From: Geosiphon pyriformis uo1
Taxonomy: Eukaryota > Fungi > Glomeromycota
Length of the DNA: 64,000 bases
Reading direction: 5' to 3'
NCBI GenBank assembly: GCA_016748015.1
Contig: JAAOMT010000299.1
Coordinates: 1-64,000, forward strand
Of this stretch, positions 9,927 to 60,900 are shown piece by piece (positions within the stretch are counted from its first letter, which is position 1; each line of letters starts with the position of its first letter). The notes under the pieces were generated by a model. It saw only the letters and a program-made list of their open reading frames with translations. It did no database searches and was not told where the DNA came from. A program made the position numbers and the translations under genes.

Positions 9927-9955
9927 TGTTGTTGTGGCAGGTGGGTTGGTAATTT

Positions 9956-11368
9956 TTATGTGTGTCTCATTCTTGACAAACAGTTAGCATTAGCATTTTT
10001 GGTACCTTCTTTGTATTTAATAATATAATTGTATGGTGCTAACGTTTGTGACCATCTGGCATATTTTTTTTTTAGTGCTTTCTTATTATTTAACCAGACC
10101 AGATCTCTATGATCTGTGGTAATCTCAAAGAGTTGGTACTGTAAATATGTGTCAAAGTGAACACAACTCCAGACTACTGCTAAGTATTCAAGTTCATGTG
10201 CTGCATAGTTTTGCTCTGCCGTACTGAAATTTCTGCTGGCATAAGCAATTACACGTTCTCTTCCATTATTATCTTTTTGTGACAGAATGGCTCCAAGTCC
10301 AGTTCCAGAGGCATCTGTGGCCAAAATAAATTTCTTGTTGAAATTTAGATAGATCATTATTGGTGATTCAATAAGCTTTTGTCTAAGGTACTTGAAAGCT
10401 TTTTGTTGTGCTTCAGTCCATTCAAACTTCACATTTTTGGATAGTAGGTAATTAAGGGGTTTGGCAATGTTTGAAAAGTTTTCTATAAAGTGGCAGTAGT
10501 AAAATGTGAGTCCTAAAAAGCTTCTAACTTCTGAAACGTTTCGAGGTACTGGAAAATTTTTCACTTTGTCTATTTTTAATGGATTTGGTTTTATTCTATC
10601 TTTTCCAACTATGTGTCTTAAAAATGCTAGCTCATTTTTCCCAAAGAAACATTTTTCTAGATTTAGTTTAAGTCCAGCATATCTCAATCTCTCAAAAACT
10701 TGTTGTAAATGTTGGAGATGATCCGTGAATTTTGACGAGAAAACATTTGTATCATCCAAGTAGACAACAACAGATTGCCACAGGATTCTGGAGTAAATTA
10801 CGTCCATTAGTCTTTGGAATGTTGCAGGAGAGTTTGTTAATCCAAATGGCATTACATTGAACTCATAATTGCCATTTTGTGTTGTGAATGCTGTTTTATG
10901 CCTGTTTTTTGAGTCCATTTCTATTTGCCAGTACCCATTGGTCAAGTCTAGTGTAGAAAACCATTTTGCTCCTCCAAAAACGTTGAAGATTTTGTTAATT
11001 AATAGTATTGGGTATGAGTTTTTGGTTGTTTTGCTGTTTAGTTTGCGATAGTTGACGCAAAATCTAATTTTTCCATTCTTTTTCCTTACTAAAACAACTG
11101 GTAAGGACCATGGGCTCATTAATAGTTGTATTATTTTTTTTTTTAACATGCTTTGGACTTCTTCTCTGATAAAATTATGCTCCATTGGTAGAATACAATA
11201 AGCGCATTGTTTTTCAGGTCTGGCGTCTCCAGTGGGGATTTGGTGTTGAACCAAGTTGGTTTTTCCAAATTTGCTATTTCGTGAAAATATATTAGAGTAT
11301 TTTAAAATTAATGCTTTTAATTGTTGCTGTTGGTCAGGATCCATTGTTCTAATGTTTAATTTGGTCAA
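9956..11368 (-). CDS. pol: C1 reverse transcriptase + RNase H (end of Gag-Pol)
   Basis: SPW-PVVLV, RFCVNYRKLN, MPFGLTNSPATFQ, YLDD, ATDAS, TDH. Ends ..LSRMRHT-stop. Confidence 0.96.
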   Translation of the reverse strand: MTKLNIRTMDPDQQQQLKALILKYSNIFSRNSKFGKTNLVQHQIPTGDARPEKQCAYCILPMEHNFIREEVQSMLKKKIIQLLMSPWSLPVVLVRKKNGKIRFCVNYRKLNSKTTKNSYPILLINKIFNVFGGAKWFSTLDLTNGYWQIEMDSKNRHKTAFTTQNGNYEFNVMPFGLTNSPATFQRLMDVIYSRILWQSVVVYLDDTNVFSSKFTDHLQHLQQVFERLRYAGLKLNLEKCFFGKNELAFLRHIVGKDRIKPNPLKIDKVKNFPVPRNVSEVRSFLGLTFYYCHFIENFSNIAKPLNYLLSKNVKFEWTEAQQKAFKYLRQKLIESPIMIYLNFNKKFILATDASGTGLGAILSQKDNNGRERVIAYASRNFSTAEQNYAAHELEYLAVVWSCVHFDTYLQYQLFEITTDHRDLVWLNNKKALKKKYARWSQTLAPYNYIIKYKEGTKNANANCLSRMRHT

Positions 11369-12406: not shown

Positions 12407-12423
12407 TGGTGAACCCTACGAGG
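12407..12423 (+). promoter_or_regulatory. PBS of C2 (TGGTGAACCCTACGAGG)
   Basis: 2 nt after LTR end TAACA; repeated at about 18193. Confidence 0.85.
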
Positions 12424-15309: not shown

Positions 15310-15333
15310 NNNNNNNNNNNNNNNNNNNNGTCT

Positions 15334-17180: not shown

Positions 17181-17197
17181 TTGAAAGGAGGAGATAA
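17181..17197 (+). promoter_or_regulatory. Polypurine tract (C family)
   Basis: GAAAGGAGGAGATAA immediately before the LTR start TGTTA at 17198. Confidence 0.85.
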
Positions 17198-22788: not shown

Positions 22789-22870
22789 TTTTGTCTCTTC
22801 CTTTTTAGCAATGAATTATTGCTAATTATTATTTCCTTTTTGATTTTCTTTCCTTGTAGGAAGCACTAAA

Positions 22871-23744
22871 TGTTATAAGATGGTTTTCTTGTTATATTTA
22901 ATTGCCGATATCCTGTTTTAATTACAATCAGTCTTTCGTGAGTTCCTCAATTCTATTTGTGTGATAATGTTATTGTTATACTGAAGACTTTTTTTTTTAA
23001 TGTCGCAATGTAAGTTATTCTTCAATTCCTGATTGTTGTGTGTGTTTATGTACTCCTTTTCAGAGGCTGAACTGAAATCTACTCACTGTTTGGGGTCTTC
23101 TCTGAGGCTATCCTTGCAATTGTCTGATGTGTTTCTCTAATCTAGAAACACAGAAGGTTAATGGCCTTTAGTGCTTTTCCTAATTCTTACAATAAAGCTT
23201 TTATCAATTAGTAACAACGTGAATAATCTTGATCAAGAATTATTTTTCCAAGGGATTCAGTTGATGAATGATAGTTTCATTCAATAAATAATACAAGTAA
23301 GTTTCTTAATACTTTGGGTTGTAATAATTCAGTTTTAAATATTCTTTTTCATTTCTTTTTGATTTAAAGGTTTCTTAGGATATTTAATTTGAAAGTATGA
23401 TTTAAAGTGGAGTTTGTTGAATAAAATTGGATCTATTGCTTGATAAATTATGATTTTTATTACTTGATTCTCTTTTCTCAATATTAAAACTACTGTATAT
23501 ATACATGTTTGTAGTTCTACAAGAAAACACATTGTAATACTTTTTTTTGATATTTCAACCTGGTGTTTGCTGCTATCATCAGTTGGTGTTGACTGCTATT
23601 GTGAACTGGTGCTTGTCACTATCGTGAAATGGTGTTTGCTACTATGTTAATCATTACCTTTCTAAGATTATTACTATGCTATATTATGATTGTATAGTTT
23701 ATATTGTTTTTATGATTCTTTTGCTAAATTCTTAAACCATAACA
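22871..23744 (-). repeat. 5' LTR of C1
   Basis: Direct repeat of 6907-7780, followed on the minus strand by PBS TAGTGCTTCCTACAAGG. Confidence 0.95.
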
Positions 23745-26157
23745 CCATTAGTCCTTGGGAAATAACTGACTCTGAGAAAGAGAAGAGTAATGATCAGGAA
23801 ACTAGCAAACAAAACCCAATTCTAGAAAATTCAGAAATTAAAACTCTGGTTAATCAAACTCCAGAAAATCAAAATGATCAAAACTCCGATGTAATTAATT
23901 AACAAAACTTATCTCCAATAATTGAGATCAATTCACCACTTATCCCACCAATTGCTGAACAGCAACAACAGCTACAATCACTATCCCAACAACAAATCCA
24001 GCAGCAACCACAACAACAACCAATGACCTATGCTCCAATTGCCAAAATAGAAAAATTTACTGGCAAAGAGAATGACATCCAAGTATGACTCAATAATGTA
24101 GAAAAAGCCATCATAACCAATAGATAGAACAATGACAGAGCCTTTCAAGCAATTTTCTATTTTCTATAAGATACTGCTGACTCATGGTATTAGAATTTAG
24201 CCACTAAACCTCAAACATTCTAGGAATTTAAAATTGCATTCTTGGAATATTTCAGTAATAATAACAGTATTAATTGTCTAGTCAACGCCTTTACTACAAT
24301 TAAATAGGGAAAAACTGAAGCAGTTACCACTTACTTGAGACACTTCCACAGGAACTTGTGCCAAATTCAAGCAATTCAAGCTGACTATTTTACAGTGCCA
24401 CAGATTCTAAACCAGTTCATCCATGGACTGCACAGTAGTCTTTTCTAATGTGTATGCCCAATGCATCCACAAACTCTCCAAGACACAGTCACTAATACAA
24501 AAAATTTTGAATTGGCAGAACTTGAAGCAAACTATGCTCAAGCTGTTAACCTAGTCATGAATAGATCATCTGACTTGGATTCCAAATTAAAACAACTCAG
24601 TGATTCAATTAATCAGAAATTGGAAGGATACTTAGTTGACAATCACACAATTTATCAACCACTACAATGATGCAATAATTCAGGAAACACAAATTATTTC
24701 CAAAATCAGTTGCATCCATCATCATCTTCAAATCAGCCATAGCAACAAAAGATGCATGTCTGCCATAACTGTAGTAAACAAGGCCATATTAGAGCTGACT
24801 GCTGATTTTATAGTAATAATTCACAATTGGGAAATCAATATCAAAACCCTGATCACTGGTTTCAAGCTCCAAGTTATCAACCCAGCTCAGCACCATATCA
24901 ACTGAATTACCTACCTATAATGCAACAGCCAATATATTAACCACCAATTTATCAGCCCTCAGTATCTGTCATTTATCAAACACAGTCCCAACCCATCTAT
25001 CAGTCACAGTCTCAAATAATCTATCAACTCCAACAAATTCAAACACCACCACAAAACTTATCTCAAAATGGAACCCAAAGGCCAAAACTGACACAACAAA
25101 GCTGGAGATTGTCGATAATAGTCTATCAACCAATCTTTAGTTCTTTTATGCATCTATCTGGATTATGACAACAGAATTTGAACACTGGATACACCCAAAA
25201 CCTGAGTTCCCAGAACTATTTAAGTCTCTTGGTTACCCCAGAAAACATCTTATCTGATAACGTAGATATTCACCAAACACAGCCACTTACCAGTAACATT
25301 CTACCAGCCACCAGTACCGAAGACAAATCACTAGTCACTATATTCCCTTTTGATCTTGACAAAATTACACCAGTCCTATTATTTAGTGGAGTCACTCTTA
25401 ACACCAAACCAATTACAGCCATGTATATCAATGCTAAAGTCAATGATCAACCTATCAAGCTTATCTTTGATAGTGAGTTAGCAGGCAGCATAATCACATA
25501 ACAACTCATGAACCAATTAGATTGCCGAGTTGATCATGCTGCCAGTGCCAAGATTATTATGGCTAATAGAGCTACAAAAACTTCTATTGGCAAGATCGAT
25601 GACTTCTCTTTTAAAGTCAATGGCATCATTATAACAATTAAAGTTCTAATAATGAAAGCCACTCAATACTAGGCACTCATTGGCAATGATTGGCTGTCTA
25701 AAACAAATGCAACTCTTGATTGGACTACACAAGAGCTTTAACTGAGCCAGAATGGTTGACACACATGTGTACCAGCCATGTGTGATTATTTCAAAATAAC
25801 TACCACATCAGCACCACTAATTGAGCTTAAAAAAGAAAAAGAAAACCCTATTTGGAAAACATATTAAGTTTTATGGGCTGACAATGAGCACAATAAATTA
25901 CTACCAGTGCCTTTATAAGATTACTAAGAAAAGGGAAAGCAAAGAGAGGAACCTACATGGAATAACGATCAAACTTGGAGAACCAACAATGATCAGGATA
26001 AACTATTAACAACCTAGGAATGAAAAAAAGATAATATTAAAGGGAAAGGAAAAGAAAAAAAAGAAAATTCAACACCAAACCCCATTTACTCTATATATAC
26101 TTACATACCACCACAACCAAACTATTATTAACCAAAGCTTATATACAGCAATTGCAG
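23745..26157 (+). pseudogene. gag: Element B gag - CCHC - protease (part 2)
   Basis: MTYAPIAKIEKF capsid start, CHNCSKQGHIRADC knuckle, AMYINAKVNDQPIKLIFDS. Confidence 0.88.
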
Positions 26158-27143
26158 TGTTACTGAAGGTTTTTGGTCTCTTTTCTGTAATGTTGTTGAT
26201 ACTTATTTGCTGTGAATTCACGTTTTCTGGGTGTGGTTGAACCTCCAGTAACTGAATTTTTAACTTTAAATTATCTCCTATAATTTGAACTTGCTGGGCT
26301 TATGAGTGGAATGGCCAATTCCGTGCCAGTTGCTTTATGTAGTTATGTTGTAGTAAACGTCAACTCTTTTCCAGGAATTGCTCGTCTGGAAGCTCACTAA
26401 AAATGTGTAGTTACTTTGCTGTGAAAGTCAACTCTTCTACAGGAATCTCATCTGTAGGCTACCCTAATGATTGTAATAAGAAAATAAAAGAAAAATAAAA
26501 GAAATGTAAAAGAAATAGAATTCTGTCAAGGGAAACGTTTTCTATTCAGGCCTGGAGTCACTAACAGTTTACTGAAATTGGTAGCTAATTAATTTCGAAA
26601 TGTTAGTTGGGTTTTGGGGATTTTTCCAAGTGCAATAATTAAAGAATTTGGTTTTTCGAATTTATTTGATATTTATTTCTTTTTGTGTGTATAGGAATGG
26701 TTCTAAGAGATAAATCTAAAGTAAGATACATTTTCTCAAAGAGAGAAGCTTTTCTTTTATACAACTTGTCATAACACTATTCTATGAACTTGAACTTTGC
26801 TATTTTCTACAATTTTGCTGAACTAAAGATACATTTTGGCGAACTACAAGTTATTTCTGCAAACTTATTAGATATTTTGGTGATCTATCAATTATTTCGG
26901 CGAATTTCTATAAATTTCGGCAAACTTTTGAATGTTACATAGTTTGGGGTATTGCATGATTGATCATCGCAATTAGGTTACATTTGTGTTGTGTACAATT
27001 TGGGTTATTAATTAAATGATAATTTCAGACATTTTTTGCTAATGTAATAAGTAATCATTTGAAACAATAATATATGCTAATTAATGATAGAAATTATAAG
27101 ATAGTTTCATGCTAAATGATATCTCTAATTTCGTCTAGTAACA
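26158..27143 (-). repeat. 3' LTR of D1
   Basis: Direct repeat of 35024-36009. Confidence 0.95.
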
Positions 27144-27177
27144 TAACCTTCTCTTCAAGACTGAGCTCCATCGAAGT

Positions 27178-27831
27178 TCAAGTACTGTCTGTTATTTCCA
27201 GATAATAATCCAAAATTATTGAAGAAATTTGGTCTGAAAATTGTTGAAATTTCAGTTCTGTGAGCTTTTCAATGTATTGAATCTTCAAAAGTTGAAAAAT
27301 TGGGTTTTGTAGTATGTTTTCACAGGTGTGGAATAGGTTATAAAGTCTAAGAGCAGCTCTAAGCCTGTAGTGACTGTTTGTTGATCCAGCTGTTGTCTTG
27401 AATTCATTGTGGAGTTGTTTCTGAATAGCTTCTTTTGTGAGGTTTGCTGTTGTAAGTTCCAGTTTCCATTCGTAGAGTGTTTTTCCAATGTGAAAGTATC
27501 TATAAATTGGAGGATATTCAGTGTTTTTCTCATTGAGACACAGTTGAAGTTTTTGTTGAATTGTAGCATTTGGTGGAATACTAATCAGAGTGAGCATTAG
27601 GTTTTCTCTTAAAGCAAGCTTTAAAAGTTCTGGCAGGTGAATTCCAGTATAACTTCTTGTGTTCTTTTTATATGGGTAATATTTTCGTGAATTTGGGGCT
27701 AAATTTGTAACTACTTCTGTTTGGGTATAATTTATGTGGTTTCCAGTAACAGTAATGGATAATTTGGGTATTGTTTTTAAAGCTAACATTAGTTTTTGGG
27801 ATAATTGTTGAATGTTTTGAGGAATAGTCAT
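27178..27831 (-). CDS. D1 ORF3, open env-position ORF of unknown function
   Basis: About 217 uninterrupted codons between integrase and PPT, with homologs in B, C1, E1 and D2. Confidence 0.82.
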   Translation of the reverse strand: MTIPQNIQQLSQKLMLALKTIPKLSITVTGNHINYTQTEVVTNLAPNSRKYYPYKKNTRSYTGIHLPELLKLALRENLMLTLISIPPNATIQQKLQLCLNEKNTEYPPIYRYFHIGKTLYEWKLELTTANLTKEAIQKQLHNEFKTTAGSTNSHYRLRAALRLYNLFHTCENILQNPIFQLLKIQYIEKLTELKFQQFSDQISSIILDYYLEITDST

Positions 27832-27947
27832 TATAAGCAATTGAAAAAAATAAAAATTATTTTTGGTGTATGGGTTTTTATGTTATTTTTGTTTTTGTTT
27901 TTGTGAGATTGTTTCTAAATTATAAGAGAATAACTAGTAAAATTAAA

Positions 27948-29333
27948 TTAAGTGTTCAGATTGGAAGGTTGTTCAATGACAACTATTGGTTCTAAGTTTT
28001 GGAGAATATCTTCGGGACTGACCAAAGTGGAATGTGTACCAATTTGTGGAATTAATGGTTCAGGATTGTTTCTGAAATGATAGTGTTTCAAATGATCTCC
28101 ATGTGCAACTTTTGCTAGGATTTTGTCATCAAGTCTTAGCTTGTATGATCCGTTGCCTAGGACTTCATGGATAAAGAATGGTCCATCCCATTTATTTTCA
28201 AATTTTCCACTCTATTGTTTTTTAGCTTTAGTTCTGTGTAAGAAAACTTTATTTCCAATTTTCAATTTATTGGTGACTGAAGGCAATTTGTCATTATGCT
28301 GTTCTTTTTGTTGAGCTTGGGAGTGTTCAATATGAGTGGCTGCTATTCGTCGTTTTTCTTCCAATGTGTTAAGCAGAGTGTAGGCTCTTTGCTGAAGCAT
28401 TTCTTGGAAATTGTTTTCATTGATTGGTTGTGCTGGGTATGTTTCCACTGTGAAACTAATTGGTAACATTGCTGTCCTTCCATAAGTTAAATCAAATAGT
28501 GTGTGTTTTGTGGTATCTTGTTTTAATGTCCTATATGCTAATAACACTGATGGAATAAAAAGATCCCATTTTTGCTCAAAATTGGTTGAGACTTTGGTTA
28601 ATGACTCACACAATGTTCTGTTAAAACATTCCACAAATCTGTTTGTTTGTGGATGGTAGGGCAAAGACAGAGGTCTTTTGACATTGAATCATTCACAAAT
28701 TTCTTGTATCAGGTTGTTCACAAAGTGTGTTCCCTAATCGGATAAATGTTCAATTGGACATCTATGTCTACAAATGATGTCTTTGTAGATGAAATTTGCT
28801 ACTGATTTTGTATCTGCTCATTGAATGGCTCTGGCTTCAGGCCATTTAGTAAGATAGTCTACAGCTACTGCAATATAACGGTTTTCTTGAGTGGTGATAG
28901 ATAGTGGTCCGACTAAATTGATACCAATTCTGTCAAAAGACTGTTTAACTTTGATTGGATTTAAAGGTTCTGTAGGGCAAGTTCCTTCTCTTCTTTAACA
29001 ACTATCACAAGATTTGATATATTTGTGAATGTTTTTTCTTATTTGAGGCCAAAAGTAGTATTCTAGTGTTTTTTGGGTGGTGCTATCTTTTCTGAAGTGT
29101 GCTGATAAAGAATCTGAGTGCATATTGTATAAAATGGTCTCTTTTTCCTGTTTTTGTATTAATCTGAGTAGTTTGGTTGGGTTTTTGAAATTTCAATGAT
29201 AGATAATATTGTTGTGTAGAAAATATTGTTTGGCTTGTTGTTGTAACTGATGTTTTTCGTCTGGGGACCAATCTGTTGGGATTGTTAATGTCTCTAAATA
29301 TTGTTTGAGATTGTTGTAGTTTTCGGAGTTCAT
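27948..29333 (-). pseudogene. D1 integrase (separate ORF)
   Basis: Starts MNSENY. PYHPQTN, WDLFIPSVLLAYRT, GPF motif, LEPIVVIEQ C-terminus. Confidence 0.9.
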
Positions 29334-29358
29334 TGTTTGTTGTTTTGATGCTGTTAAT

Positions 29359-32300
29359 TCAAATGGGTGTTGGTTTTGTTTTCCAATTTTGCTTCATTCT
29401 TGAGAGACAATCAACATTGGTGTGGAGTTTTCCTAGTTTGTGGTGTACGATGTATTGGTAATTAGCTAAAAATCCTGTCCATCGAGTTTGTTTTGCATTC
29501 AGCTGGGTGTTTTTGTTTTGAAGCCATTTAAGTCCAATATTATCAGTGATAATATCGAATTCTTTGGGTTTGAAATAAAGGTTGAAGTGATATAGAGCCC
29601 AGATTACTGCTGCGGTTTTTAATTCTGTTGTAGGGTAGTTCTTTTCAGCTGGCTTTAATGTTCTACTAGCATAAGCAATTACTTGCTCATTTCCATTGTC
29701 ATCTAACTGTGATAGGATGGCACCAAAGGCAGTATAAGAGGCGTCAGTTGCTAACCAGAATCAGTTGCTGAAATCTGGGTAGGCAAGGATTGGAGCTGTT
29801 GTGAGTTTTTCTTTAAGTATCTCGAAGGCATTTTGGTGTTCTTCTGTCCATTTGTATTCGACATTTTTAGTAGTGAGCTGGTTGAGGGGTTTTGCAATTT
29901 CTGAGAATTCTTTGATGAATTTTCGGTAATAGGATGCTAATCCAATAAATCCTCTTAATTCTGTGGTATTTTATGGAGTCTTGAAGTTCTTGACAGTACT
30001 GATTTTTCCAGGGTCTGGTTTAATTCCATCTTTGCTAACAATGTGACCAAGAAAAGCTAAACTTGTTTTTCCGAAGTAGTATTTTTCAATGTTCAGTTTC
30101 AATCCTGTTTTCCGTAATCATTGAAAAACTTCTCGCAGGTGAATTAAATGTAGCTCGAAAGATGGTGAATAAACATCAGTGTCATCAAGATAAACTACTA
30201 CAGATTTCCAAAGGAGGCCTTTGTAAACAACATCTATGAGTCTTTGGAATGTTGCTGGTGCATTGCATAATCCGAAAGGCATTACGTTGAACTTGTAATT
30301 TCCTTCTTGAGTGGTGAATGCTGTTTTGGGGTGGTCTTTGAGATCCATAGCAACTTGCCAGTATCCACTTTCTAAATCTAATGTTGAAAAGTATTTGGAC
30401 TTTCTAAGAGCATCTAACATGTCATCAATTTAAGGAAGAGGGTAGACATCCCCAATGGTGACACTGTTGAGTTGTCGGTAATCAACACAAAATTATATCT
30501 TTCCATTTTTCTTTTTAACTAGGACCACAGATAAGGCCCATGGGCTTATTGATGGTTGAATAAGCCCATTGTTAAGCATCCGTTGTACTTCTTCTCGGAT
30601 AAATTGGTGACTTTCTGGGACAACTCGGTAGACTTGTTGTCGCCTTGGTTTGGCATCTCCTGTATAGATTTGGTGTTAAACCAGTTCTTCCTAAGTCATT
30701 GTTGTTTTCGGCAAAGATGTCAGCAAATTCTGCAATTAGCTCTTTGAGCTGGATCTGTTGTTGTGGTTCAAATTGTCCCATGTTGATTTGAGATAGTTTT
30801 TCCATGACAACATGGTAGTTTTTGGAGCTGGGGTTTGGGTTGGTTTTTGGTATTGAATGTCCAATAATTTCAGAGAAATCAGGAACTATTTGGGATAATT
30901 CTTGTTGAAATATATTACTGTGAATAACTCCAATTTCTAAATTATTTAATAAAATTATGGGGTAATTATTGGGGTTGTAAAAAGTAACTCAGACTTTCTT
31001 TGTTCCTTCTGGAATATAAATGTTTAGGATCAAAATATTATGTTCCAAGCAAACTTGTTTATTGGACTCAAAAATTTGTTGTGTGGTTGTTGGCTTTAGG
31101 CAGGTGTAGATTTCCGGATGTTCTCCAAAGGGTGAGATAGTAATCAGTTATGGAAGTCTGAGAATCTGGTAAGATTCATTCTGTGTGTTAAGAGCTATAT
31201 TAACTGGAACTGTGAATTGTCCAGTTGAACCAAAACCTTGAGTTCCTCTATCGCTTTTTTCTAATTGTTCTCTTTGATTGACTAGTTGCAAACCCGAAAT
31301 GTTGATTAAGGGTAGGTAAATAGCTTGGACAATTTTTTCAGCATGTTCAATCTTGAATGGTTTGTTAGTTTCATTTTGAAGCATCACTGTTATGTCTCCA
31401 GTATATCCGGCATCAATTATTTCTCCTCTGACATTGATTTTTTTGCTTGCCAGAGAGGACTGAAAGGCAATTTAAACCATTGCTCCTGGTGGGATTTCGA
31501 GTGCAATTTTGAGGTTGATTTTTGTGAGAGATTTGGGTTTGAGAACAAGAGTATCCTTGCCTGGATATCTTAGGTTATATCCAGCATCAATTTCGTGTGC
31601 TTTTTCCGGTTTTATTCCTTGTCCATTGTTGTTGAAGTATTTAAGTTGTAAGACAGGCTGATTTTTGATAAGGTAGATGGGTGTTGTTTCAATTTCTTCC
31701 GTTTCTTCAGGTTTTCCGAATTCAATTTCATTCTCATCATTTTCGCTGAGCAAGAAGATACTAAGAGCATAGTATTCAGGACACCATTGTTCATTACAAG
31801 GCATAATGCATTTTTCACATAGCCTAATGTTCATTTGCTCTAATTGTTGAATTTGAGCTTCTTGGGTCGGGTAGATGTGACTTGCAATTTGGTGGTAGGC
31901 TTCTACTTCATCTTCGTAATCGAATCCAGCTAATTCCATAGTGTATTCAATGTATTCTGCTTTCTTCATTTGACAAACATCTTCTTTGGTAGCTCCATTA
32001 ATTAATGCCATTGCTAAGTCAAAAATCATCTTGGCATCATGAGGGTAGTAATAAAGTTTGTTGAGAGCACTGTTGTATGCTGCATTAAAGGGTGTTCCTC
32101 TTTTTACTTTTTCTGAAATTGATAAAGCATATTGGCAGGTCTGATCGCAGACACCTCCTCTCATTGCTACATCAATTCAATTGCATTTTTCTGGTAGCAT
32201 ATCTGCATAAATCAAACAAGGGGTGTTGTCCCATTTTCCACTCCTTTTTATTAGATGGCTCCATCACTCTCTGTGGCAAGCCTTGCAGTAATAACAAGTA

Positions 32301-34981
32301 TGATTCTCATATTCTTCTTCAGGTGAAATGCAGGCTCCTATTGACGATAGTTTCTTGTGGCAGTCCTTACATTTAAGGGGAATATAAGGGCATTGTTTCC
32401 TTGGTTTGGGTTTTAAATAAGATATATTCCATTCAGAGGTTTTGGGTTTAGTGTGTGGGGTAAAATGTTCTTGTTCTGTTTCATCGGCCCAGTTGGACGT
32501 TGATCCAAGAGCCATGAATGTTTTAATTATTGGTTTTTTTTCTTCTGGTTCAAATTCAAAAGCCGGGGCTTTTTCAGAGTGTTTGTTGAATGTTCTACAA
32601 ATGGCAGGTACCCGGGCGTGTTGTCCTTGGTAGGAGATTGTTAACTCTTGTGTTTCTTAATTCAGATTAGCATTGGCTTCTTGAAGCCAATCATTTCCAA
32701 CGAGAGCTTGGTACTGGGGTATGTCTATTACAAGAACTTTGACTGAAATGGTGATTCCATCAAGAGTGAATGGAAAATTGTCAATTTCTCCTACTGGGGT
32801 CTTTTTCATGCCATCAGCAGTGACAATTACTGTTTAAGCTGGTCGGTCGACATTTCTTTTCAACTGTTGCATTAACTGGTAAGTGATAATGCTTCCGGTG
32901 GATCCACTGTCTAGGATCAAGCAAATTGGCTTTCCTTTTACTTCAGCTTCTGTGTACATTGCAGTCATGGCTTTTTGCTCATTAGCTGCTGCATTGCTAA
33001 GCAAGAATGGTGATTCATTTGCTTCAAATTCGAAAGGAAAGATATCAGAGAGATTGGTGTTTTCAGCAATTTGGGCTGGTGGAATAGTGGTGTGGTTATG
33101 AGAAGGGTTTTGTTGTTGTTGTGCTGTAGCTCTACCTTCCGAGAGTTCAGTATGGTGGAAATCCTGTTCTTCCGGCATTGTTAAATAACTGGGTTGAGTG
33201 TGGTAGTGGTTGGGTCTTGGTTGAGTGGTATTTCAGGGAACCAATTGGTTGTTCAAACTGATTCTACTGTTGTTTACTTGGTATTGGTTTTGTGGTGTGA
33301 ATTGATTTTGTGTAATCAGTCTTTGAGCAGGTACTTGATAATGTTGTATGGGTGGTTGTTGGTATTGCTGTTGAATTGGTTGTGGGGTGGGCTGATAATA
33401 GTTATTTTGGTATTGGGGTTTTGGTGGATAGTAAGCTGGTGGTGATGGTTGATAATAAGATTGCTGTGGTGGAAAGTAACATTAATTACCCCTATTTTGT
33501 TGGTCTCGTTATAGCTTTCTGCAATCTCTTTTCCAGTGGCCAAAGATTCCACAGTAATGGCAATTCTGGGGCTGGTTATTGGAAAGTGGTGCAAAGTTAT
33601 TTTGATTTCGTTTTTGGGGTGGTTGATATCTTTGTTGTTGTTGGTTGGTAAAATAGTTTTCGATCTTCTTTATGAGTTAGTCAATTTTTTCCTCAGCTGC
33701 TGAGCTGGTTTCTCCGATTACCAAATTTACAAGTTTTGTATGATTGGCCTCTTTCATGGCCATTTCGTATCTTTTCACATGCTGTATAGCAGAGTTTAAA
33801 TCTTCTGGCATGTGTGGGCGAACCTTTTTAATTAGTTTATCTTTTAGACCAGTGATAAATTGATCCAAGATTTGAGCATCGGAATAATAATCATTTGTTT
33901 CGAGTTGGTGAATCCATCTGAGAAGTTTGTTGAATTTCTCAATATAAGTCATAACAAATTCGGAGGGTTCTTGTTTGATATTTCGAAAACAATTGCGAAG
34001 AGTGATGGAGGTATTATTGTCGGTGAACTGTTCAAGGAAGGCTGCTTTGAAAGCGTTCCAATCATTGAATGGGGTGGCCAGATTTTCAAACCATTCTCCT
34101 GCTGTTCCTTTGAGAAAGTATGGAATTGTTCTTAACATTCTGGTAACATTCCATCCATTTGCATCTCCAGCTTTAGTAACTTGGTCGAGCCATTCTTGAG
34201 GACTGGTCTCAATGTCTTCTTCATTAAAGTCAGGGATTTTTGTGATATATGTTGTCATTTCGTCTTCTTCGTTTTCACTGTCTATTGGTTTTTCTTCAGT
34301 TATTTCAGAGTTGTTTTCTTCATTTGCTGCTGTCTCAGAGTGTTCACTTTGATTTTTAGCTAGAAAATCAAGGAGATTGGAACTAGTTTGAAGGAGTTCT
34401 TGTTGTCTGGTGAGACTTTTGAGTAATGTAAAATCTTCTGGTCTTGTAAATTGATTCAAGGGTGAATTAGGTATTTGTGCTTGTGCAAGTGAAGCTGGAA
34501 AAGGTGTAATAGTAAGTGGAAGTTTTGAGCTGGTTCCTTGTTCAGGTGTTTGTAGATGTTTGAATGATATTTTGGGAGTATTGGGTGTTGTGTGAACAGA
34601 TTGGTTATCTTTTTGTCTTTTGTTGCTACTGGTTTCAGGTTCAGATTCGAGTTCAAAGGCAAATTGTGTGTTTGCAGGATATTTTTCTTTACAGAATCGA
34701 ATGATATTATAATTGAGTTCCTCAAAATAAGTAGCACAAGCTTCAGCACTAATGTTTTTTGATTCAGTGTTGGAATAGTGTAGTATGTTCTCAAGAAGAT
34801 CTCTTTTAACTGTTGTAATGTTATAGTTCCCAAAGAGGTAGTCGTTAATTTGATTTTCGATGTATTGAAAAAGTGTTTTCTTGAAAGCTATGATTCCGTC
34901 GCATATTTCAAATTGTTGTTTGCAGTGTGTGTAAATTGATTGATAGTACTCTAAGGTTGTGATGTCTGAGGTGGTCACCAC
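29359..34981 (-). pseudogene. pol: D1 Gag-Pol (leader-CA-CCHC-PR-Cys-rich-dUTPase-RT-RH)
   Basis: ORFs 33677-34981 (gag), 32834-33178 (LDSGS), 31148-32164 (dUTPase) and 30118-30420 (YLDD). Confidence 0.93.
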
Positions 34982-35023
34982 TTTGAATTTGTTGCTGTGT
35001 TATTTCCATGGGAGAGCACCAAA

Positions 35024-36009
35024 TGTTACTGAAGGTTTTTGGTCTCTTTTCTGTAATGTTGTTGATACTTATTTGCTGTGAATTCACGTTTTCTGGGTGT
35101 GGTTGAACCTTCAGTAACTGAATTTTTAACTTCAAATTATCTCCTATAATTTGAACTTGCTGGGCTTATGAGTAGAATGGCCAATTCCGTGCCAGTTGGT
35201 TTATGTAGTTACATTGTAGTAAATGTCAACTTTTTTCCAGGAATTGCTCGTCTGGAAGCTCACTAAAAATGTGTAGTTACTTTGCTGTGAAAGTCAACTC
35301 TTCTACAGGAATTTCGTCTGTAGGCTACCCTAATGATTGTAATAAGAAAATAAAAGAAAAATAAAAGAAATGTAAAAGAAATAGAATTCTGTCAAGAGAA
35401 ACGTTTTCTATCCAGGCCTGGAGTCACTAACAGTTTACTGAAATTGGTAGCTAATCAATTTCGAAATGTTAGTTGGGTTTTGGGGATTTTTCCAAGTGCA
35501 ATAATTAAAGAATTTGGTTTTTCGAATTTATTTGATATTTATTTTTTTTTGTGTATATAGGAATGGTTCTAAGAGATAAATCTAAAGTAAGATACATTTT
35601 CTCAAAGAGAGAAGCTCTTCTTTTATACAACTTGTCATAACACTATTCTATGAACTTGAACTTTGCTATTTTCTACAATTTCGCTGAACTAAAAATACAT
35701 TTTGGCGAACTACAAGTTATTTCTGCAAACTTATTAGATATTTCGGTGATCTATCAATTATTTCGGTGAATTTCTATAAATTTCAGCGAACTTTTGAATG
35801 TTACATAGTTTGGGGTATTGCATAATTGATCATTGCAATTAGGTTACATTTGTGTTGTGTACAATTTGGGTTATTAATTAAATGATAATTTCAGACATTC
35901 TTTGCTAATGTAATAAGTGATAATTTGAAATGATAATATATGCTAATTAATGATAGGAATTATAAGATAGTTTCATGCTAAATGATATCTCTAATTTCGT
36001 CTGGTAATA
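35024..36009 (-). repeat. 5' LTR of D1
   Basis: Direct repeat of 26158-27143, with the PBS adjacent at about 35005-35021. Confidence 0.95.
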
Positions 36010-38991
36010 GTGGCAAGAAATTGTCATCAATGGGTGTATACTGTGGTAACAATAAGAAATACCAAATGGCAACCAAGTTTTACTGTCACCCATGTGTCAT
36101 AGAACGTTTTGGAAGACCAAAACAAGTAGAAAAATGGGATAATGAACTCTGCTTGGCTTGTAAAGAAACTCTTTTAGACAAAAGAATGTGAAATGACATT
36201 CCTGGACAAAGAAGAATGTGTGACAAATTGTGTCAGTACATAATTCTTATAAGTGACTGGGTTAGAAAAAAAATGCTCATAGATGCTGTCTGGAGATGAG
36301 CAGTCAAATGCTTGGACAGATGTCCACACAATAATAATAAAATTTGGTGAATGGCTCTTGCCAAAATTGAAAAAATGTCACCAGAAGAAATAAAAAAAAT
36401 AGAGAACAATCTATCAGAACCTATAGAACTTGACTGAGACCCAGAGCCAGTCATAAATCTACTGAACCCAGAACAATTTTATGAACACTATCAGGAATTA
36501 GCACCAACTAAAAAGAAACAAAACCAACAGTTGGAAGAAATCAACACTCAACTATGTAATCATTGTTTAATTCCCTGTGACTTTTAATATTGTAATAAGT
36601 GTGACTTCATTTACAATTCATTACCATACATAATCTACACAATTCCAGAGGAAAACAAACCAATCAGCCACTTTGCATCAGAATCGGAATCAACTTTCAA
36701 TTCCAATTCAAACTCTAACAATGATGACAATAAAAATAATGGTTCCAGTTCTGTTTAAAATAGCAACAAAAATTACGATAATTTGGACTCTGATTCAAAC
36801 CTGAAACATATATTGTGCTTCCTAACCTCTTTAAGAAGCAGAAACTTAAATGGTTTAATGATAACAATAAAGATATTATATCAGAATGTGCGCATGATAC
36901 TGATGCCAGGTTTGATCTAAGATATTCAGGAAAGAACACTATCAAATTGGAACCACATTTATGCATATGCATTGATCTCAAAGTAGCATTAGAAATCCCA
37001 GCAACAACAATGGTTCAACTAGCATTTAGAAGTAGTTTAGTGAAAAGAGGAATTAACATCAGAAGAGGAATAATTAATGCAGAATATGTAGAAAATATTA
37101 TTGCAATACTACAAAATGATTCAGAAAAGACCTATGTTATAGAGCCAAATGAAAAGATAGCACAGGCAATATTCCTGTCTCTGGTTAAAATAGCTTAATT
37201 AGTATCAGTAAGAAACAGGGAAAAATTAGGAATTACAGCTAGAGAGATACAGGAATTCGGATCCACAAATAAAATAGATATACCAATCAATATGGCAGAG
37301 GAAGAGATTATTGACAAAGAAAAAATTATCTCCACTTGTCAACCAATTTCCATTCTACTATATGACTGGTACATAGTAACTATAAAAAGAAAAGTGAAGA
37401 ATTATGTTCAAATGTTTGAGGCAGAAGCACAACTTTGTGAATCAGGAGAGATTAGATTAATTAATTTATACATACCAGTCAAGAATCATAGTCACATTAA
37501 AATCCCTATTTACAACAACATGGAAAACATCATGGAGATACCAGAAGGAACCACTATTGGATACTTAACCACTGAAATTGAAGAACAACCACTAAACCCC
37601 ATTCCAGACTTTCCACAATTGTGTAGATATGTGAATATTATATTACAAACAATATATGAATAAGAAGAATGTTATCTGCTCCAACCAAAACAATTAGAAC
37701 AGATGAACTTGGGAAACTTAGACTCACTATAATGTATGCAACTCAAGATGCTACTTAATAATTTCAATGACATCTTTGCCAGCAAAAACAAATTTGGCAA
37801 AACTGACATCATCCAACATCAAATTAAGACTGGAGATGCAATGCCAATTAAACAGAGAGCATACAGAGTACCACCAGCTAGCCATGAGATCATTTGTCAA
37901 AAAATTAATTGGATGTTTGACAATGGACTAATTCAGTCATCAATGAGCCCATGGTCATCACCAGTGGTATTAATCCATAAAAAAAATAGGAAAATTTGCT
38001 TTTGTGTGGATTACCAAAAACTAAATGGAGTGACCAAAGGAGATAACTACCCAACTCCAAAAATCCAAAAATTGTTCAATGTTTTTGGAGGAAAAAAATG
38101 GTTCTTGACACTAGATTTAGACAGTAATTACTGACAAGTAGCCATAAAACCAGAAGACAAAGAGAAAACAGCTTTTACAACTTAAGAAGAAAACTTTGAA
38201 TTTGAAATAATGCCATTTGGCTTGATGAATGCTCTAGCCACTTTTCAGCAACTTATGAAAATTGTTTATACTGGGCTACTATGAAAATCAGTAGTCATAT
38301 ACTTAGATAACACCAATGTATTTTCAAAAACATTCAATGATCATCTACATCATCTTCAACAAGTGTTTAAAAGACTAAAAAAAGCTGGATTAAAGCTAAA
38401 TGCAATCAAATGCTTCTTTGGAAAAACAGAACTCAAGTTTTTGGGACATGTAATAAGCAAAGATGGTATTAAAATGGATCCAGATAAGATTGCAATAGTA
38501 AAAAACTTTTCAGTACCAACCAACTTAACAGAACTAAGAGCATTTTTGGGATTTGCAGATTACTATTGCTGCTTTATCAAAGACTTCTCGAAATTAGCTC
38601 AGCCACTTTATTATTTACAAACCAAGAATGTGAAGTACAAATAGACAGAAGCCCAACAAGAAGCTTTTGACATATTAAGAAAAAAGCTTATCCAAGCTCT
38701 AGTATTGATGTATCCAGATTACAACAAACTATTTATTATTACTACTAATGCATTAGGCCAAACATTGGAAGCAGTACTATTACAGAGAGAACCAGATGGA
38801 AGAAAGCATCCAGTAGCTTATGCCAGTAAAAGCTTAAGTCCAGCTGAAAAGAACTATGGAACTTCAGCACTAAAACACTTAGCTATCTATTGGGCTGTCA
38901 TCAAATGGAAAGAATACTTGAGTCAGAAGTTTGACATATATACTGACCACAAAGAATTGACTTCAAGCCAGAAACAAAAATTTGGAAACAA
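36010..38991 (+). pseudogene. pol: Element B Cys-rich - dUTPase - RT - RNase H (part 3)
   Basis: ORFs 36815-37198 (dUTPase), 37736-38134 and 38363-38644 (RT), 38705- (RNase H). Confidence 0.92.
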
Positions 38992-39997
38992 TGTTACCAG
39001 AGGTTTTTGGTCTCTTTTCTTGAATGTTGTAAATGTTGATTTGTTGTGAATTCACGTTTTCAGGAAGTAGTTGGACCTCCAGTAACTGAATTTATCTTTA
39101 AATTATCTCCTATAATTTGAACTGCTGGGCTTATTAGTGGAATGGCCAATTTCTTGCCAGTTACTTTATGTAGTTATGTTGTAGTAAACATCAACTCTTT
39201 CCCAGGAATTGCTCATCTGGAAGCTCACTAAAAATGTGTAGTTACTTTGCTGTGAAAGTCAACTCTTCTACAGAAATCTTGTCTGTAAGCTACCCAATTG
39301 ATTATGACAAGAAAAAAAAAATAAAATAAAAGAAATATAAAATGAATAGAATTTTATCAAAGAAAACGTTTTCTATCCAGACCTGGAGTCACTAACAGTT
39401 TATTGAAATTGGTAGCTAATCAATTTCAAAACGTTAGTTGTGTTGAGAGAATTTCAAGTGTAATAATTTGAGGATTTGGTTTTCGAATATTTAATTTTTA
39501 TTTGATTTTGTAAAAGGTGATTTGTTTTAATTAAGATATCTAAAGTAAGATACTATGGTAAAATACTATGAGAAGATACATTTTCTTGAAAAAAGAAGCT
39601 CTTCTTTTATACAACTTGTTGTAGTACTAGTCTTTGAACTTGCACTTTTCTTTTTGCTAGAATTTGGGTGAACTAAAGATACATTTCGGTGAATTTACAA
39701 GTTATTTCACTGAACTATTGATTATTTCGGCAAATTTTTATTAATTTCGGCGAATTTTGACTATGTTAAATGGTTCAGGGTATTGTGTAATTTGATTATC
39801 TTAATTTCTAGAATACAAATCGGATTATTGATTGAGTAATGATATTTGATAATTTGATTAAATAATAAGTAATAATCAAAATGATAATGATTTATGCTAA
39901 TTAATAATAAGAATTATAAGGGTAATTTCATGTTAATTAATAGCTAAAATTCTACTGGTAACATAATCTCCTCCTTAAGACTGAGCTCTGTCGAAGT

Positions 39998-40651: not shown

Positions 40652-40838
40652 GATAAAAATGACTAATTAATAACAAAGTTTGAAAAAAATAAAGAAAATT
40701 GTTTTTGGGTATAGGGTTTTTATTTGTTTTTGGGTTTAAATGTTTTTTTGTAATTATTAACTATTTTTGATTTATGTTTTGTGGGTTATATATAAAAAAT
40801 TATTGTAAAATTATGTTAAATTAAGTGTTTAAGTTTGG

Positions 40839-45581: not shown

Positions 45582-46743
45582 TTTGAAGTTGTTATTGCTG
45601 TGTTATTTCCATGGGAGAACACCAAATGTTACCAAAGATTTTTGGTTTCTTTTTTTGAATGTTGTAAATGTTGATTGTTGTGAATTCATGTTTTCAGGAA
45701 GTAGTTAGACCTCCAGTAACTGAATTTATCTTTAAATTATCTCCTATAATTTGAACTGCTGGGCTTATTAGTAGAATAGCCAATTCCTTGTCAGTTACTT
45801 TATGTAGTTACATTGTAGTAAACATCAATTTTTTCCCAAGAATTGCTCATCTGGAAGCTTACTAAAAATGTGTAGTTACTTTGCTGTAAAAGTCAACTCT
45901 TCTACAGAAATCTCGTCTATAGACTATCCAATTGATTATGATAAAAAAATAAAAGAAAAATAAAAAAAATGTAAAAGGAATAGAATTTTATCAAGGGAAA
46001 TGTTTTCTATCCAGGTCTGGAGTCACTAACAGTTTATTGAAATTGGTAGCTAATTAATTTCAAAACATTAGTTGTGTTGAGAGAATTTCAAGTGTAATAA
46101 TTTGAGGATTTGGTTTTCGAATATTTAATTTTTATTTGATTTTGTAAAAGATGATTTGTTTCAATTAAGATATCTAAAATAAGGTACTATGGTAAAATAC
46201 TATGAGAAGATACATTTTCTTGAAGAGAGAAGCTCTTCTTTTATACAATTTGTTGTAGTACTAGTCTTTGAACTTGCACTTTTCTTTTTGCTAGAATTTG
46301 GGTGAACTAAAGATACATTTCAGCAAATTTACAAGTTATTTCATTGAACTATTGATTATTTCGGCAAATTTTTATTAATTTCGGCGAATTTTGACTATGT
46401 TAAATGGTTCAGGGTATTGTGTAATTTGATTATCTTAATTTTTAGAGTACAAATCGGATTATTGATTGAGTAATGATATTTGATAATTTGATTAAATAAT
46501 AAGTAATAATCGAAATGATAATGATCTATGCTAATTAATAATAAGAATTATAAGGGTAATTTCATGTTAATTAATAGCTAAAATTCTACTGGTAACAATG
46601 ATTGCCATGCCAGATGGAAAATAGAACTTTCACCATTTAATTATACAGTACATTTTAAAAAAGGAAAAAAAAATGGAATGCTGATGGATTATCAAGAATG
46701 AGACAAATCTAAAAACATTTTAAATCCAAAAATATAACAAAAG

Positions 46744-53035: not shown

Positions 53036-53049
53036 AAAAAAAAAAATAA

Positions 53050-57915: not shown

Positions 57916-57966
57916 TGTTTGTTGGCTCTTTTGGTTGGTTTGGTTGAGTGTTGGTTTTTGTGTTTT

Positions 57967-60900
57967 CTAATCTTGTCTCATTCTGGAGAGACAGTCAACA
58001 TTGGTGTGAAGTTTTTCTGGTTTGTAATATACTATGTATTGATAGTTTGCTAGAAATCCTGTCCATTGGGTTTGTTTTGCATTCAGCTGAGTATTTTTGT
58101 TTTGAAGCCATTTGAGTCCAATATTATCAGTGATAATATCAAATTTTTTAGGCCTGAGATAAAAGTTGAAGTGATGTAGGGTCCAGATTACTGCTGCGGT
58201 TTCTAATTCTGTTGTGGGGTAGTTCTTTTTGGCTGGTTTTAATGTTCTACTAGCATAAGTAATTACTTGCTCATTTTCATTGTCATCTAACTGTGATAGG
58301 ATGGCACCAAAGGCAGTATGAGAGGCGTTAGTTGCTAACCAGAATTGGTTGCTGAAATCTGGGTAGGCGAGAATTGGAGCTGTTGTGAGTTTTTCTTTAA
58401 GTATCTCGAAGGCATTTTGATGTTCTTCTTTTTATTTGTATTCGACATTTTTAGTAGTGAGCTGGTTGAGGGGTTTTGCAATTTCTGAGAATCTTTTAAT
58501 GAATTTCCGGTAATAGGATGCTAATCCAATAAATCCTCTTAATTCAGTGGTATTTCGTGGAGTTTTGAAGTTCTTGACAGTACTGATTTTTCTGGGGTCT
58601 GTTTTAATTCCATTTTTGCTAACAATGTGACCAAGAAAAACTAAACTTGTTTTTCCGAAGTAGCATTTTTCAATATTCAGTTTCAATCCTGTTTTCCGTA
58701 ATCGTTGAAAAACTTCTTGCAGGTGAATTAAATGTAACTTGAAAGATAGTGAATAAACATCAGTGTCATCAAGATAAACTACTACAGATTTCCAAAGGAG
58801 GCCTTTGTAAACAACATCCATGAGTCTTTGGAATGTTGCTGGTGCATTGTATAATCTGAAAGACATTACATTGAACTCGTAATTTTCTTCTTGAGTGGTG
58901 AATGCTGTTTTGGGGTGGTCTTTGGGATCCATAGCAACTTGCCAGTATCCACTCTCTAAATCTAATGTCGAAAAGTATTTGGACTTTCCAAGAGCATCCA
59001 ACATGTTATCAATTCGGGAAAGAGGGTAGGCATCTCCAATGATGACACTGTTGAGTTGTCGATAATCAACACAAAATCAGATCTTTCCATTTTTTTTTTA
59101 ACTAGGACCACAGATAAGGCCCATGGGCTCATTGATGGTTGAATAAGCCCATTGTTAAGCATCCGTTGTACTTCTTCTCAGATAAATTGGTAACTTTCTG
59201 GAGCAACTCGGTAGGCTTGTTGTTGCCTTGGTTTGGCATCTTCTGTATAGATTTGGTATTGAACCAAATTAGTTCTTCCTAAGTCATTGTTGTTTTTGGC
59301 AAAGATGTCAGCAAATTCTACAATTAGCTCTGTGAGCTGGTTTTGTTGTTGTGGTTCAAGTTGTCCTATGTTGATTTGAGATAGTTTTTCCATGACAACA
59401 TGGTAGTTTTCAGAGCTAGGATTTGGGTTGATTTTTGGTAGTAAATATCCAATGATTTTCGAAAAATTGGGAACTGTCTGGGGTAGTTCTTGTTGAAAGA
59501 TGTTACTGTGAATGACTCCAATTTCTAAGTTATTTAATAGAACTATGGAATAATTGTTGGGATTGTAAAAAGTAACTCAGACTTTTTTTGTTCTTTCTGA
59601 AATATAAATGTTTGGAATTGAAATGTTATGTTCCAAGCAGACTTGTTCATTGGACTCAAAAATTTGTTGTGTGGTTGTTGGCTTTGGGCAGGTGTAGATT
59701 TCCAGATGTTCTCCAAAGGGTGAGATGATAATCGGTTGTAGAAGTCTGAGAATCTAGTGGGATTTGTTCTGTGTGTTAAGAGCTATATTAACTGGAACTG
59801 TGAATTGTCCAGTTGAACCAAAATCTTGGGTTCCTCTGTTGCTTTTTCCTAATTGTTCTCTTTGATTAACTAGTTGCAAACCTGAAATGTTGATTAGGGG
59901 TAGGTAAATAGCTTGGGCAATTTTTTCAGCATGTTTAATCTTGAATGGTTTATCAGTTTCATTTTGAAGCATCACTGTAATGTCTTCAGTATATCCAGCA
60001 TCGATTACTCCTCCTCTGACATTGATTCCTTTGCTTGCCAAAGAAAACCGGGAGGCAATTTGAACCATTGCTCCTGGTGGAATTTCGAGTGCAATTTTGA
60101 GGTTAATTTTTGTGAGAGATTTGGGTTTGAGAACAAAAGTATCCTTGTCTGGATATCTTAGGTCATATTCAGCATCAATTTCGTGTGCTTTTTTGGGTTT
60201 TATTCCTTGTCCATTGTTGTTGAAGTATTTAAGTTGTACAGCAAGCTGATTTTTGATAAGGTAGATAGGTGTGGTTTCAATTTCTTCCATTGTTTTAGGT
60301 TCTCCAAATTCAATTTTGTTCTCATCATTTTTGCTGGGCAAGAGGATACTAAGAGCGTAGCATTCAGAACACCACTGTTCATCACAAGGCATAATGCATT
60401 CTTCATATAGCCTAATGTTCATTTGCTCTAACCATTGAATTTGAGCTTCTTTGGTCGGATATGTGTGGCTTGCAGTTTGGTGGTAGGTTTCTACTTTATC
60501 TTCATAATCAAATCCAGCTAATTCCATGGTATACTCAATATATTCAGCTTCTTTTATTTGGCGGACATCTTTTTGGGTGGCTCCATTGATCAATGCCATT
60601 GCTAGGTCAAAAATCATTTCAGCATCATGAGGGTAGTGGTAAAGTTTATTGAGAGCACTGTTGTATGCTGCATCAAATGATGTTCCTTTTCTGATTTTTT
60701 CCGAAATTGATAGAGCATATTGACAGGTTTGATCACATACTCCTTCTCTCATTGCTATATCAATCCAATTGTATTCTTCTGATAGCATTTCTTCACATGT
60801 AAGGCAAGGTGTATTGTCTCATTTTTCACTTCTTTTTGAAGATCCAAATCGTTCTCTATGGCATGCTTTGCAAAAGTAACAGGTACAAGTTTCATATTCC

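Follow-up and report, generated by a model that had tools for sequence, protein, structure and literature searches.

A Ty3/Gypsy retrotransposon lineage of Glomeromycotina with integrase and a third protein encoded apart from Pol

Where does integrase (IN) lie in element D1, a long terminal repeat (LTR) retrotransposon at 26158-36009 on the minus strand of a 64-kb stretch of the Geosiphon pyriformis genome (contig JAAOMT010000299.1; the whole stretch of 64,000 nucleotides is hereafter the window), and does its arrangement belong to a lineage or to one decaying copy? Canonically, the pol open reading frame (ORF) of Gypsy elements has IN at its C-terminal end (PMC3248453; this and the other articles given by PMC number are cited from parts of their text). 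The original prediction, made from the sequence alone, had proposed for D1 and its relatives a GUG-initiated Gag-Pol followed by a free-standing IN and a third frame, ORF3. We find that this three-gene layout, Pol, then IN, then ORF3, is almost certainly real.

The window is made up of CpG-depleted LTR retrotransposons nested in one another, in a genome whose LTR content is given as 41.2% (PMC11952901). The LTRs of D1 are direct repeats, 96.85% identical over 984 nt, with TG...CA ends (the outer CA of D1 has decayed to TA), and a primer-binding site (PBS) and a polypurine tract (PPT) are present. Pfam searches of the D1 frames, with stops read through as X, gave the order Gag (CCHC), protease (PR), dUTPase, reverse transcriptase (RT) and RNase H (RH), followed in another frame by the H2C2, rve and SH3 domains of IN and then by a 217-aa ORF without a family. 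The matches to RVT_1, RT_RNaseH and Ty3_capsid and the order PR-RT-RH-IN place D1 in Ty3/Gypsy, but IN is not the C-terminal part of its pol ORF. Judged by its sequence, D1 is a dead copy of a Ty3/Gypsy LTR retrotransposon lineage of Glomeromycotina. It carries 11, 5 and 6 premature stops in ORF1, RT-RH and IN, respectively (22 in all), and a frameshift near 30680 that is private to it, D2 and the copy at 38992-46597 being in frame there; because of these lesions D1 alone proves no gene plan. Its earlier description as uninterrupted and displaying the whole plan is correct as to the domain order and the lack of a nested insertion, but not in view of the stops, the frameshift and a TGG at the position of the Pol stop.

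The evidence for a separate IN comes from other copies. In D2 (54463-64000) and in elements B (6907-23744) and E, RNase H ends in SRMRxx* with the stop at the same codon, four codons past the RNase H end, in families that are ~55% identical in RT; D1 has TGG at this codon and terminates 8 codons further on. The Pol-IN spacers of D2, B, E and D1 measure 51, 29, 31 and 49 nt, with all three phases represented, contain 74-94% A+C and have folding energies near 0. Decay stops, in contrast to this shared one, are nearly all private to single copies and derive mostly from CAA, CGA or TGG. The claim that B, C1 and D2 repeat the plan is upheld for D2 and B by their Pol stop, which E has as well. The copy at 38992-46597, a relative of D1 with an internal deletion, has RT residue ~89 abutting IN residue ~412 (RT 1-89 is directly joined to IN 412-481) and retains its LTRs and ORF3; it is uninformative on the RH/IN junction because most of RT-RH-IN has been lost. 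The LTRs had also been called unalignable between families, which is true of the B LTR, for which no alignment with that of D1 was obtained; the LTR of the 38992-46597 copy aligns with D1's at ~76%.

Among the best 120 stand-alone proteins of similar length that match IN (each at least 363 bits; those named come from Rhizophagus irregularis and R. clarus), 101 begin at a methionine equivalent to Met1 of the D1 IN. The control set, the best 120 longer proteins matching IN, contains two with more than 40% identity, the remainder scoring at most 241 bits, and both of these fused proteins are fungal gene models that lack the C-terminus of RNase H and the N-terminus of IN. A chromodomain (PF00385) was found neither in the D1 IN nor in the 120 stand-alone INs. 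We also examined 80 metagenome loci (L-numbers), in 26 of which the RH end was readable by pattern: 18 stop before a downstream IN, six are fused and two have IN first. One of the loci, L010, is a near-copy of L011. The IN start could be placed in 14 of the 18 split loci, and Pol-IN gaps run from -8, -4 and -1 nt through 27-163 nt up to 365, 521 and 727 nt; the negative values are stop-start overlaps (-8 in L028, ATGA at -4 in L060 and TAATG at -1 in L015), and the near-identical L006 and L041 have spacers one nt apart. L060 possesses an unbroken 1577-codon Gag-PR-dUTPase-RT-RH frame, then IN, then an ORF3; L011 likewise has unbroken ORFs with Pol and IN split, and L021 is a complete LTR-bounded relative with the same split. 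The stop shared by D2, B and E, the conserved Met1 and these intact loci bear out the proposal that the Pol, IN and ORF3 plan is ancestral and not a decay product. The further proposal that the plan demands non-canonical expression also appears sound. One stand-alone IN of D1's family (P0553) is labelled as coming from an Acidobacteria metagenome-assembled genome and is probably misbinned fungal DNA.

The D1 ORF3 has 198 homologues, the best 120 of which are all G. pyriformis gene models, up to 93% identical; many of these copies have Trp at the position of the D1 TGA, and their frame continues across the PPT into the LTR. Its dN/dS is 0.21 against the 38992-46597 copy, a sign of purifying selection, and 0.64 against the near-identical D2. 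ORFs 3' of IN in seven metagenome loci resemble one another, and a profile from 10 sequences reached 467 clusters (50% identity), some of whose members are named proteins of Gigaspora margarita and R. irregularis; a profile from 146 of these hits matched 3' of IN in 12 loci, four of them non-seed, and in no fused locus. For these proteins of 140-240 aa, AlphaFold2 predicts an all-helical domain (pLDDT 96.9 for P0362; pLDDT 77 with a helical core for D1). No Pfam env family matched ORF3, Foldseek against PDB and BFVD returned no match to its fold, VIA reached Z 5.1 and 5.2 at best, and its sequence gave nothing credible against PDB; a Pfam hint of DUF1016_N (E 0.03-0.08) and the Atlas features RegA-like repressor and closterovirus coat (0.92, under 170 shared features) are leads only. 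The models make ORF3 a conserved family of helical proteins with no clear counterpart among known folds; its conserved Arg, Tyr and Lys residues suggest nucleic-acid binding. The 3' end of ORF3 (27178-27143 and relatives) commonly lies inside the 3' LTR, with LEEEV-like ends in G. pyriformis models, L008 and L012.

At the other end of the element, the GTG at 34981 lies in the context CAAAGTGG, common to D1, D2, the 38992-46597 copy and B. The ORF1 frame runs into a stop 6-7 codons upstream of it in the D family and ~10 codons upstream in B; similarity between copies starts at AAAGTGG, and no in-frame Met occurs before codon 242, 240 and 240 in three copies. Leader codons 1-110 give a dN/dS of 0.11-0.14, a rough value with synonymous sites near saturation. 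ATGs in any frame number 2, 0 and 1 in the leaders against 8.6, 6.5 and 6.9 expected from dinucleotide shuffles (in no case did any of 300 fall as low), and 13-17 in the next block of equal length. The B leader is richer in ATG, which fits CpG decay, as its first four are missing from the nested copy, where decay is lighter. That the leader is under purifying selection and depleted of ATG in every frame makes the proposed GUG start of ORF1 likely, and a conserved AUG-poor leader is what leaky scanning past a near-cognate start would be expected to leave; a splice acceptor at AAG/TG may occupy the same spot.

This part of the plan is not clade-wide, as had been supposed. ORF1 of L021 opens with ATG and contains no dUTPase, and the Cys-rich domain had no match in any of the metagenome loci; since L021 opens with ATG, the GUG leader is, as sampled, confined to the Geosiphon branch, and so is the Cys-rich domain. 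The full GUG-leader-Gag-PR-Cys-dUTPase arrangement thus characterizes a Geosiphon sub-lineage only, but Pol, IN and ORF3 in succession extends to the clade. Searches of Pfam and PDB with the Cys-rich domain gave no match. The dUTPase (PF00692; the nested copy, with less decay, gives E 4e-26) had been described as no standard domain of Gypsy elements, but dUTPases between PR and RT have already been reported in those of fungi, rotifers and planarians (PMC2864245, PMC6431247). A second, degenerate dUTPase 3' of the first was considered and found unsupported (hhalign probability 0.1%).

How, then, would the downstream genes be translated? What the sequences show is the three-gene layout and its conservation, selection across all its parts and the CpG-centred 4-bp target duplications. 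With slightly better than even confidence, we propose that a single genomic RNA serves Pol, then IN, then ORF3, the ribosomes terminating at one frame and restarting at the next. A full-length RNA would be driven by the 5' LTR; part of the ribosomes would begin at GUG and yield leader-Gag-Pol, the rest scanning on, through a leader poor in AUG, as far as the Met of codon ~240. Past the Pol stop, reinitiation at the IN AUG would proceed via an AUGA or UAAUG overlap or a short, unstructured, AUG-free spacer, with one subclade employing a conserved RNA structure at this junction, and a second restart would give ORF3. That both junctions repeatedly show AUGA/UAAUG overlaps and short spacers free of AUG favours such termination-reinitiation: IN-ORF3 gaps in 10 loci range from -29, -8 and -4 up to 129 nt, and the seven positive gaps contain no ATG. 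Restart at UAAUG or AUGA has precedents in the non-LTR element SART1 and in RNA viruses (PMC10275272), and SART1, the ribosome-binding site upstream of termination (TURBS) of caliciviruses and influenza B, and the hypovirus CHV1 all combine an overlapping stop and start with nearby RNA structure (PMC10275272, PMC2699510). In contrast, the present elements are LTR elements with two successive junctions, gaps that range from overlaps to hundreds of nt, and no TURBS core.

IN and ORF3 of the same three-gene element might instead be translated from subgenomic RNAs, arising from an internal promoter or by splicing from the 5' LTR, as with foamy-virus Pol or env genes. Such RNAs would suit the long intergenic regions of L003, L017 and L021 (one with a TATA-like run), the strong context of the IN ATG (of 19, 17 have a purine at -3 and 15 have G at +4) and the pyrimidine tract and TAG ahead of ORF3 in D1 and D2. 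However, the acceptor-like site before ORF3 is lost in the 38992-46597 copy, element B has no AG between stop and ATG, and stop-start overlaps recur across several branches. We consider subgenomic expression unlikely, if still a serious contender.

Translation of IN by internal ribosome entry or from a self-cleaved RNA, at least in one subclade, is less probable again and would draw on a 42-nt RNA structure that ends from a few to ~20 nt ahead of the IN ATG in 10 loci, with invariant loop letters. In seven aligned sequences 97% of cells pair and both sides change in 6 of 10 pairs; its covariation score was reached by 0 of 500 shuffles, a test inflated by relatedness and made on the same seven sequences from which the structure was derived, and slid controls drop to 23-49% pairing. 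A model built from the seven finds the held-out L049 (E 1.6e-12) and L007 (E 0.005), plus L010, a near-copy of L011. It matched no Rfam family in the 20 loci scanned and had no match in viral contigs, in which the integrase gave only three weak hits. Against internal entry, the structure is just 42 nt long and is missing from the window elements, whose spacers are A/C-rich with folding energies near 0. Nonetheless, the long spacers that hold ATGs keep both subgenomic RNA and internal entry alive, and branches may differ.

Before the IN ATG of L021 (L021:7290-7432) there is a second motif set, two hairpins with T-loop-like heptaloops, and CTGCRTAAGGA is common to three loci in this position (L021:7290-7432; L055:28-40; L067:117-129). 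Post-RNase H C-terminal extensions without a Pfam family in L011 (L011:3497-4438, 314 aa) and L021 (L021:4945-6702, 586 aa) fall in branches with structured spacers. In L016, an ORF (L016:509-1234) with a restriction-endonuclease-like Mrr_cat_2 domain (E 5.5e-9) overlaps the IN start by ATGA.

That Pol and IN are joined into an ordinary Pol by readthrough, a frameshift or a small intron could be argued from the D2 spacer, which is in frame after its TAG, from the TGG at the stop position of D1 and from the two annotated fungal gene models that are fused. The spacers, however, occur in all three phases and in widely differing lengths, and their variable phase therefore excludes readthrough or frameshift; Met1 is conserved and both fused models delete the RH end, and we regard a joined Pol as highly improbable. 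Mutational decay of an ordinary Gypsy element, to which the lesions of D1 might point, is refuted because intact ORF1, IN and ORF3 loci exist (L060, L011), and with decay stops private to single copies but the junction stop shared across divergent families we give it virtually no weight.

What are these elements related to? The original prediction called for a search for the gene order in other early-diverging fungi, and named relatives were found in R. irregularis, R. clarus, Cetraspora pellucida and Gigaspora margarita, a wider spread than it had supposed. RT identity to fused Gypsy-type loci is 46-57%. Trees comprised Gypsy-type rows only, with no Copia, Bel or retrovirus outgroup and no REXdb/GyDB reference set. 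In an RT-RH tree without four short split rows and 14 redundant fused rows, a branch with SH-aLRT 97 in the quick tree separates the 17 split rows from the others; they lie within a group of support 96 that also holds L039, P0246, P0258 and plant Pol proteins; in another RT-RH tree that includes short rows, L042 and L018 (split, short) fall elsewhere, and one D2 row is mistranslated. In the IN tree one group (support 99) takes in all 31 split rows together with six fused ones, which requires three changes; this tree carries a long-branch warning. Because the IN tree mixes fused with split rows, a single origin of the split elements is only plausible; re-fusion and more than one split are the alternatives. 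The plant Pol proteins P0268 (Prunus), P0280 and P0282, which we infer to be Athila/Tat, group with the split elements (96 in RT-RH, 99 in IN), and the split elements are not nested among the plant rows in these quick trees, of which that of IN has the long-branch warning. A fungal origin of plant Tat, for which PMC13468544 cites Wang et al. 2021, fits this tree neighbourhood and is the main risk to novelty.

Athila/Tat elements (plant, non-chromoviral) share the order LTR-PBS-Gag-PR-RT-RH-IN-PPT-LTR with D1. The split elements differ from them in a separate IN with its own Met, a conserved ORF3 with no Pfam env match and CpG-centred 4-bp duplications, and those of Geosiphon add the GUG leader and the Cys-rich domain; the additional archaeal-type RNase H, a Tat trait, was found neither in D1 nor in the post-RH extensions of L011 and L021. 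The IN-first loci (L051, L063, L069, L072), which have IN inside Pol and branch apart from the split elements, are presumably comparable to Gmr1-like Gypsy elements, and the stand-alone IN presumably to Ginger transposases, which likewise involve unusual placement or stand-alone use of a Gypsy-type IN. Unlike in Ginger, the stand-alone INs described here sit 3' of RT-RH within LTRs (D1, L021) and not in DNA transposons. Fungal Gypsy elements with dUTPase (PosPlaTy3-5, Phanerochaete elements and Tuber Tmt1) carry it in Pol, as does D1 (PMC2864245, PMC6431247), and in PosPlaTy3-5 it lies between PR and RT, again as in D1 (PMC2864245). The elements covered there carry a chromodomain, with dUTPase described as a Pol domain, whereas the IN of D1 is separate and without a chromodomain. 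A search of the full-text literature, with Wang et al. 2021, Repbase, REXdb and supplements outside its scope, found no description of a Gypsy lineage whose IN forms an ORF by itself, and a separate-IN layout is not mentioned in the parts covered of PMC2864245, PMC11952901, PMC6431247, PMC3248453, bioRxiv 2021.03.30.436303, PMC13468544, PMC2774666, PMC13465315 and PMC10508981. That the three-gene layout has gone undescribed so far is somewhat more likely than not.

Four insertions with both ends placed are flanked by 4-bp duplications (ACGC/ACGC, GCAG/GTGG, ACAA/ATGA and CTGT/CCAT). The last three pairs reconcile only if a central CG decayed differently on the two sides, and all four complete insertions thus duplicate an NCGN site. 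CG accounts for just 0.9% of the window, or 3.9% where decay is least, which makes four CG-centred sites in four unlikely by chance (~2e-6 if independent; n = 4), and the integrase has an apparent preference for NCGN. CG-centred 4-bp targets are also used by Drosophila ZAM and tirant. In the proposed cycle, free IN would reach the particle without a Gag tether, probably through RNA or Gag binding, with the small, basic and helical ORF3 protein as a candidate helper; dUTPase would keep uracil in the cDNA low and IN would integrate at NCGN sites.

The most inclusive reading is of a widespread, undescribed Glomeromycotina clade, kin to the source of plant Athila/Tat and truly tricistronic, in which IN and an accessory protein of new fold would be freed by ribosome restart, one branch would be steered by a new structured RNA, IN would be packaged without a Gag-Pol tether and insertion would be CpG-selective; as a whole it is tentative and falls somewhat short of even confidence. 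Several observations weigh against the main proposal, a lineage that translates IN and ORF3 by termination and restart. The long Pol-IN gaps (365, 521 and 727 nt), with seven ATGs in that of L003, are hard for simple reinitiation. TGGGA (UGGGA), the core motif of the calicivirus TURBS, occurs in just one of 19 loci, and in none of three window copies, within the 150 nt preceding the IN ATG. The best window hit of the 42-nt structure (E 0.058) lies off any junction, Geosiphon ORF3 is weakly linked to the clade-wide ORF3 (three window copies score above 205 decoys, D2 does not), and fused rows lie among the split rows of the IN tree.

LTR retroelements normally bring IN into the particle within the Gag-Pol polyprotein, and a clade with free IN asks how the amount and packaging of IN are controlled. 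The split loci supply a large set of natural, intact examples of how a eukaryotic polycistronic junction can vary, with overlaps, short spacers and a covarying RNA motif; the clade also offers a protein family of 467 clusters that has no known fold, and an apparently NCGN-preferring integrase in genomes with CpG methylation. Mycorrhizal gene catalogues are inflated and confused by such elements, as ORF3-like 'hypothetical proteins' in G. pyriformis and stand-alone 'DDE integrases' in Rhizophagus.

Table 1. Features of D1 and Pol-IN junctions of related elements in the window
Feature	Position	Strand	Basis or remark
Left 4-bp target-site duplication GCAG	26154..26157	.	Partner GTGG; both derivable from one NCGN site via CpG decay
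3' LTR of D1	26158..27143	-	Identity to 5' LTR; termini
PPT, 3 nt ahead of 3' LTR	27147..27156	-	Sequence
ORF3, 217 aa, own ATG	27178..27831	-	Homologues, dN/dS, AlphaFold2
IN-ORF3 spacer, 116 nt, AT-rich	27832..27947	-	Sequence
Free-standing IN: H2C2 zinc finger, rve core, SH3-like end; own ATG	27948..29333	-	Pfam; Met1 conservation
Pol-IN spacer, 49 nt from conserved stop position; 84% A+C, unstructured	29334..29382	-	
RT and RNase H, end of Gag-Pol	29359..30675	-	Pfam; junction comparison
Conserved Pol stop position (TGG in D1)	29385-29383	-	
Present D1 stop	29361-29359	-	
dUTPase domain between Cys region and RT	31220..31609	-	PF00692, E 1.3e-17
Cys-rich domain (CxxC pairs), predicted metal-binding	31775..32419	-	Alignment; dN/dS 0.12-0.14
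Aspartic protease (DSG)	32681..32950	-	Pfam
Gag (capsid, CCHC knuckle) from codon 242, the first in-frame Met	33515..34258	-	
GTG-initiated 241-codon leader, in frame with Gag	34259..34981	-	
PBS-like sequence, TGG 2 nt past 5' LTR	35006..35021	-	Sequence
5' LTR of D1	35024..36009	-	LTR alignment
Right 4-bp target-site duplication GTGG	36010..36013	.	
D2 Pol stop (TAG) and 51-nt spacer to IN ATG, phase 0	57916..57969	-	
Element B Pol stop (TAA) and 29-nt spacer to IN ATG, phase 2	9927..9958	-	
Element E Pol stop (TAA) and 31-nt spacer to IN ATG, phase 1	46710..46743	+	

ARAGORN found no tRNA genes in the window, which thus holds no candidate for the primer tRNA, and Rfam gave no meaningful match on it. 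Ten gaps of 20 N with duplicated flanks (12179-18687, 55937-56500) are assembly joins and not biology; at one of these, 272 nt are duplicated at 100% around 56209-56228. Element E, on the plus strand at 23745-48130, is split by the B-family, D1 and 38992-46597 insertions, and element B contains a nested B-like copy (12037-19155) that is the least CpG-decayed sequence in the window. D1 and D2 form a mosaic: their synonymous divergence is ~0.55-0.73 from the leader to the Cys domain and drops to 0.06-0.25 across dUTPase to ORF3, their LTRs are 90% identical, and the 5' half of D2 is nearer to the 38992-46597 copy than to D1, a pattern that suggests recombination between subfamilies. Finally, a remnant of another family at 52560-53811 (plus strand) consists of a distant ORF3-like frame, then a PPT-like run, then an LTR-like repeat that is also present at 4313-6227.

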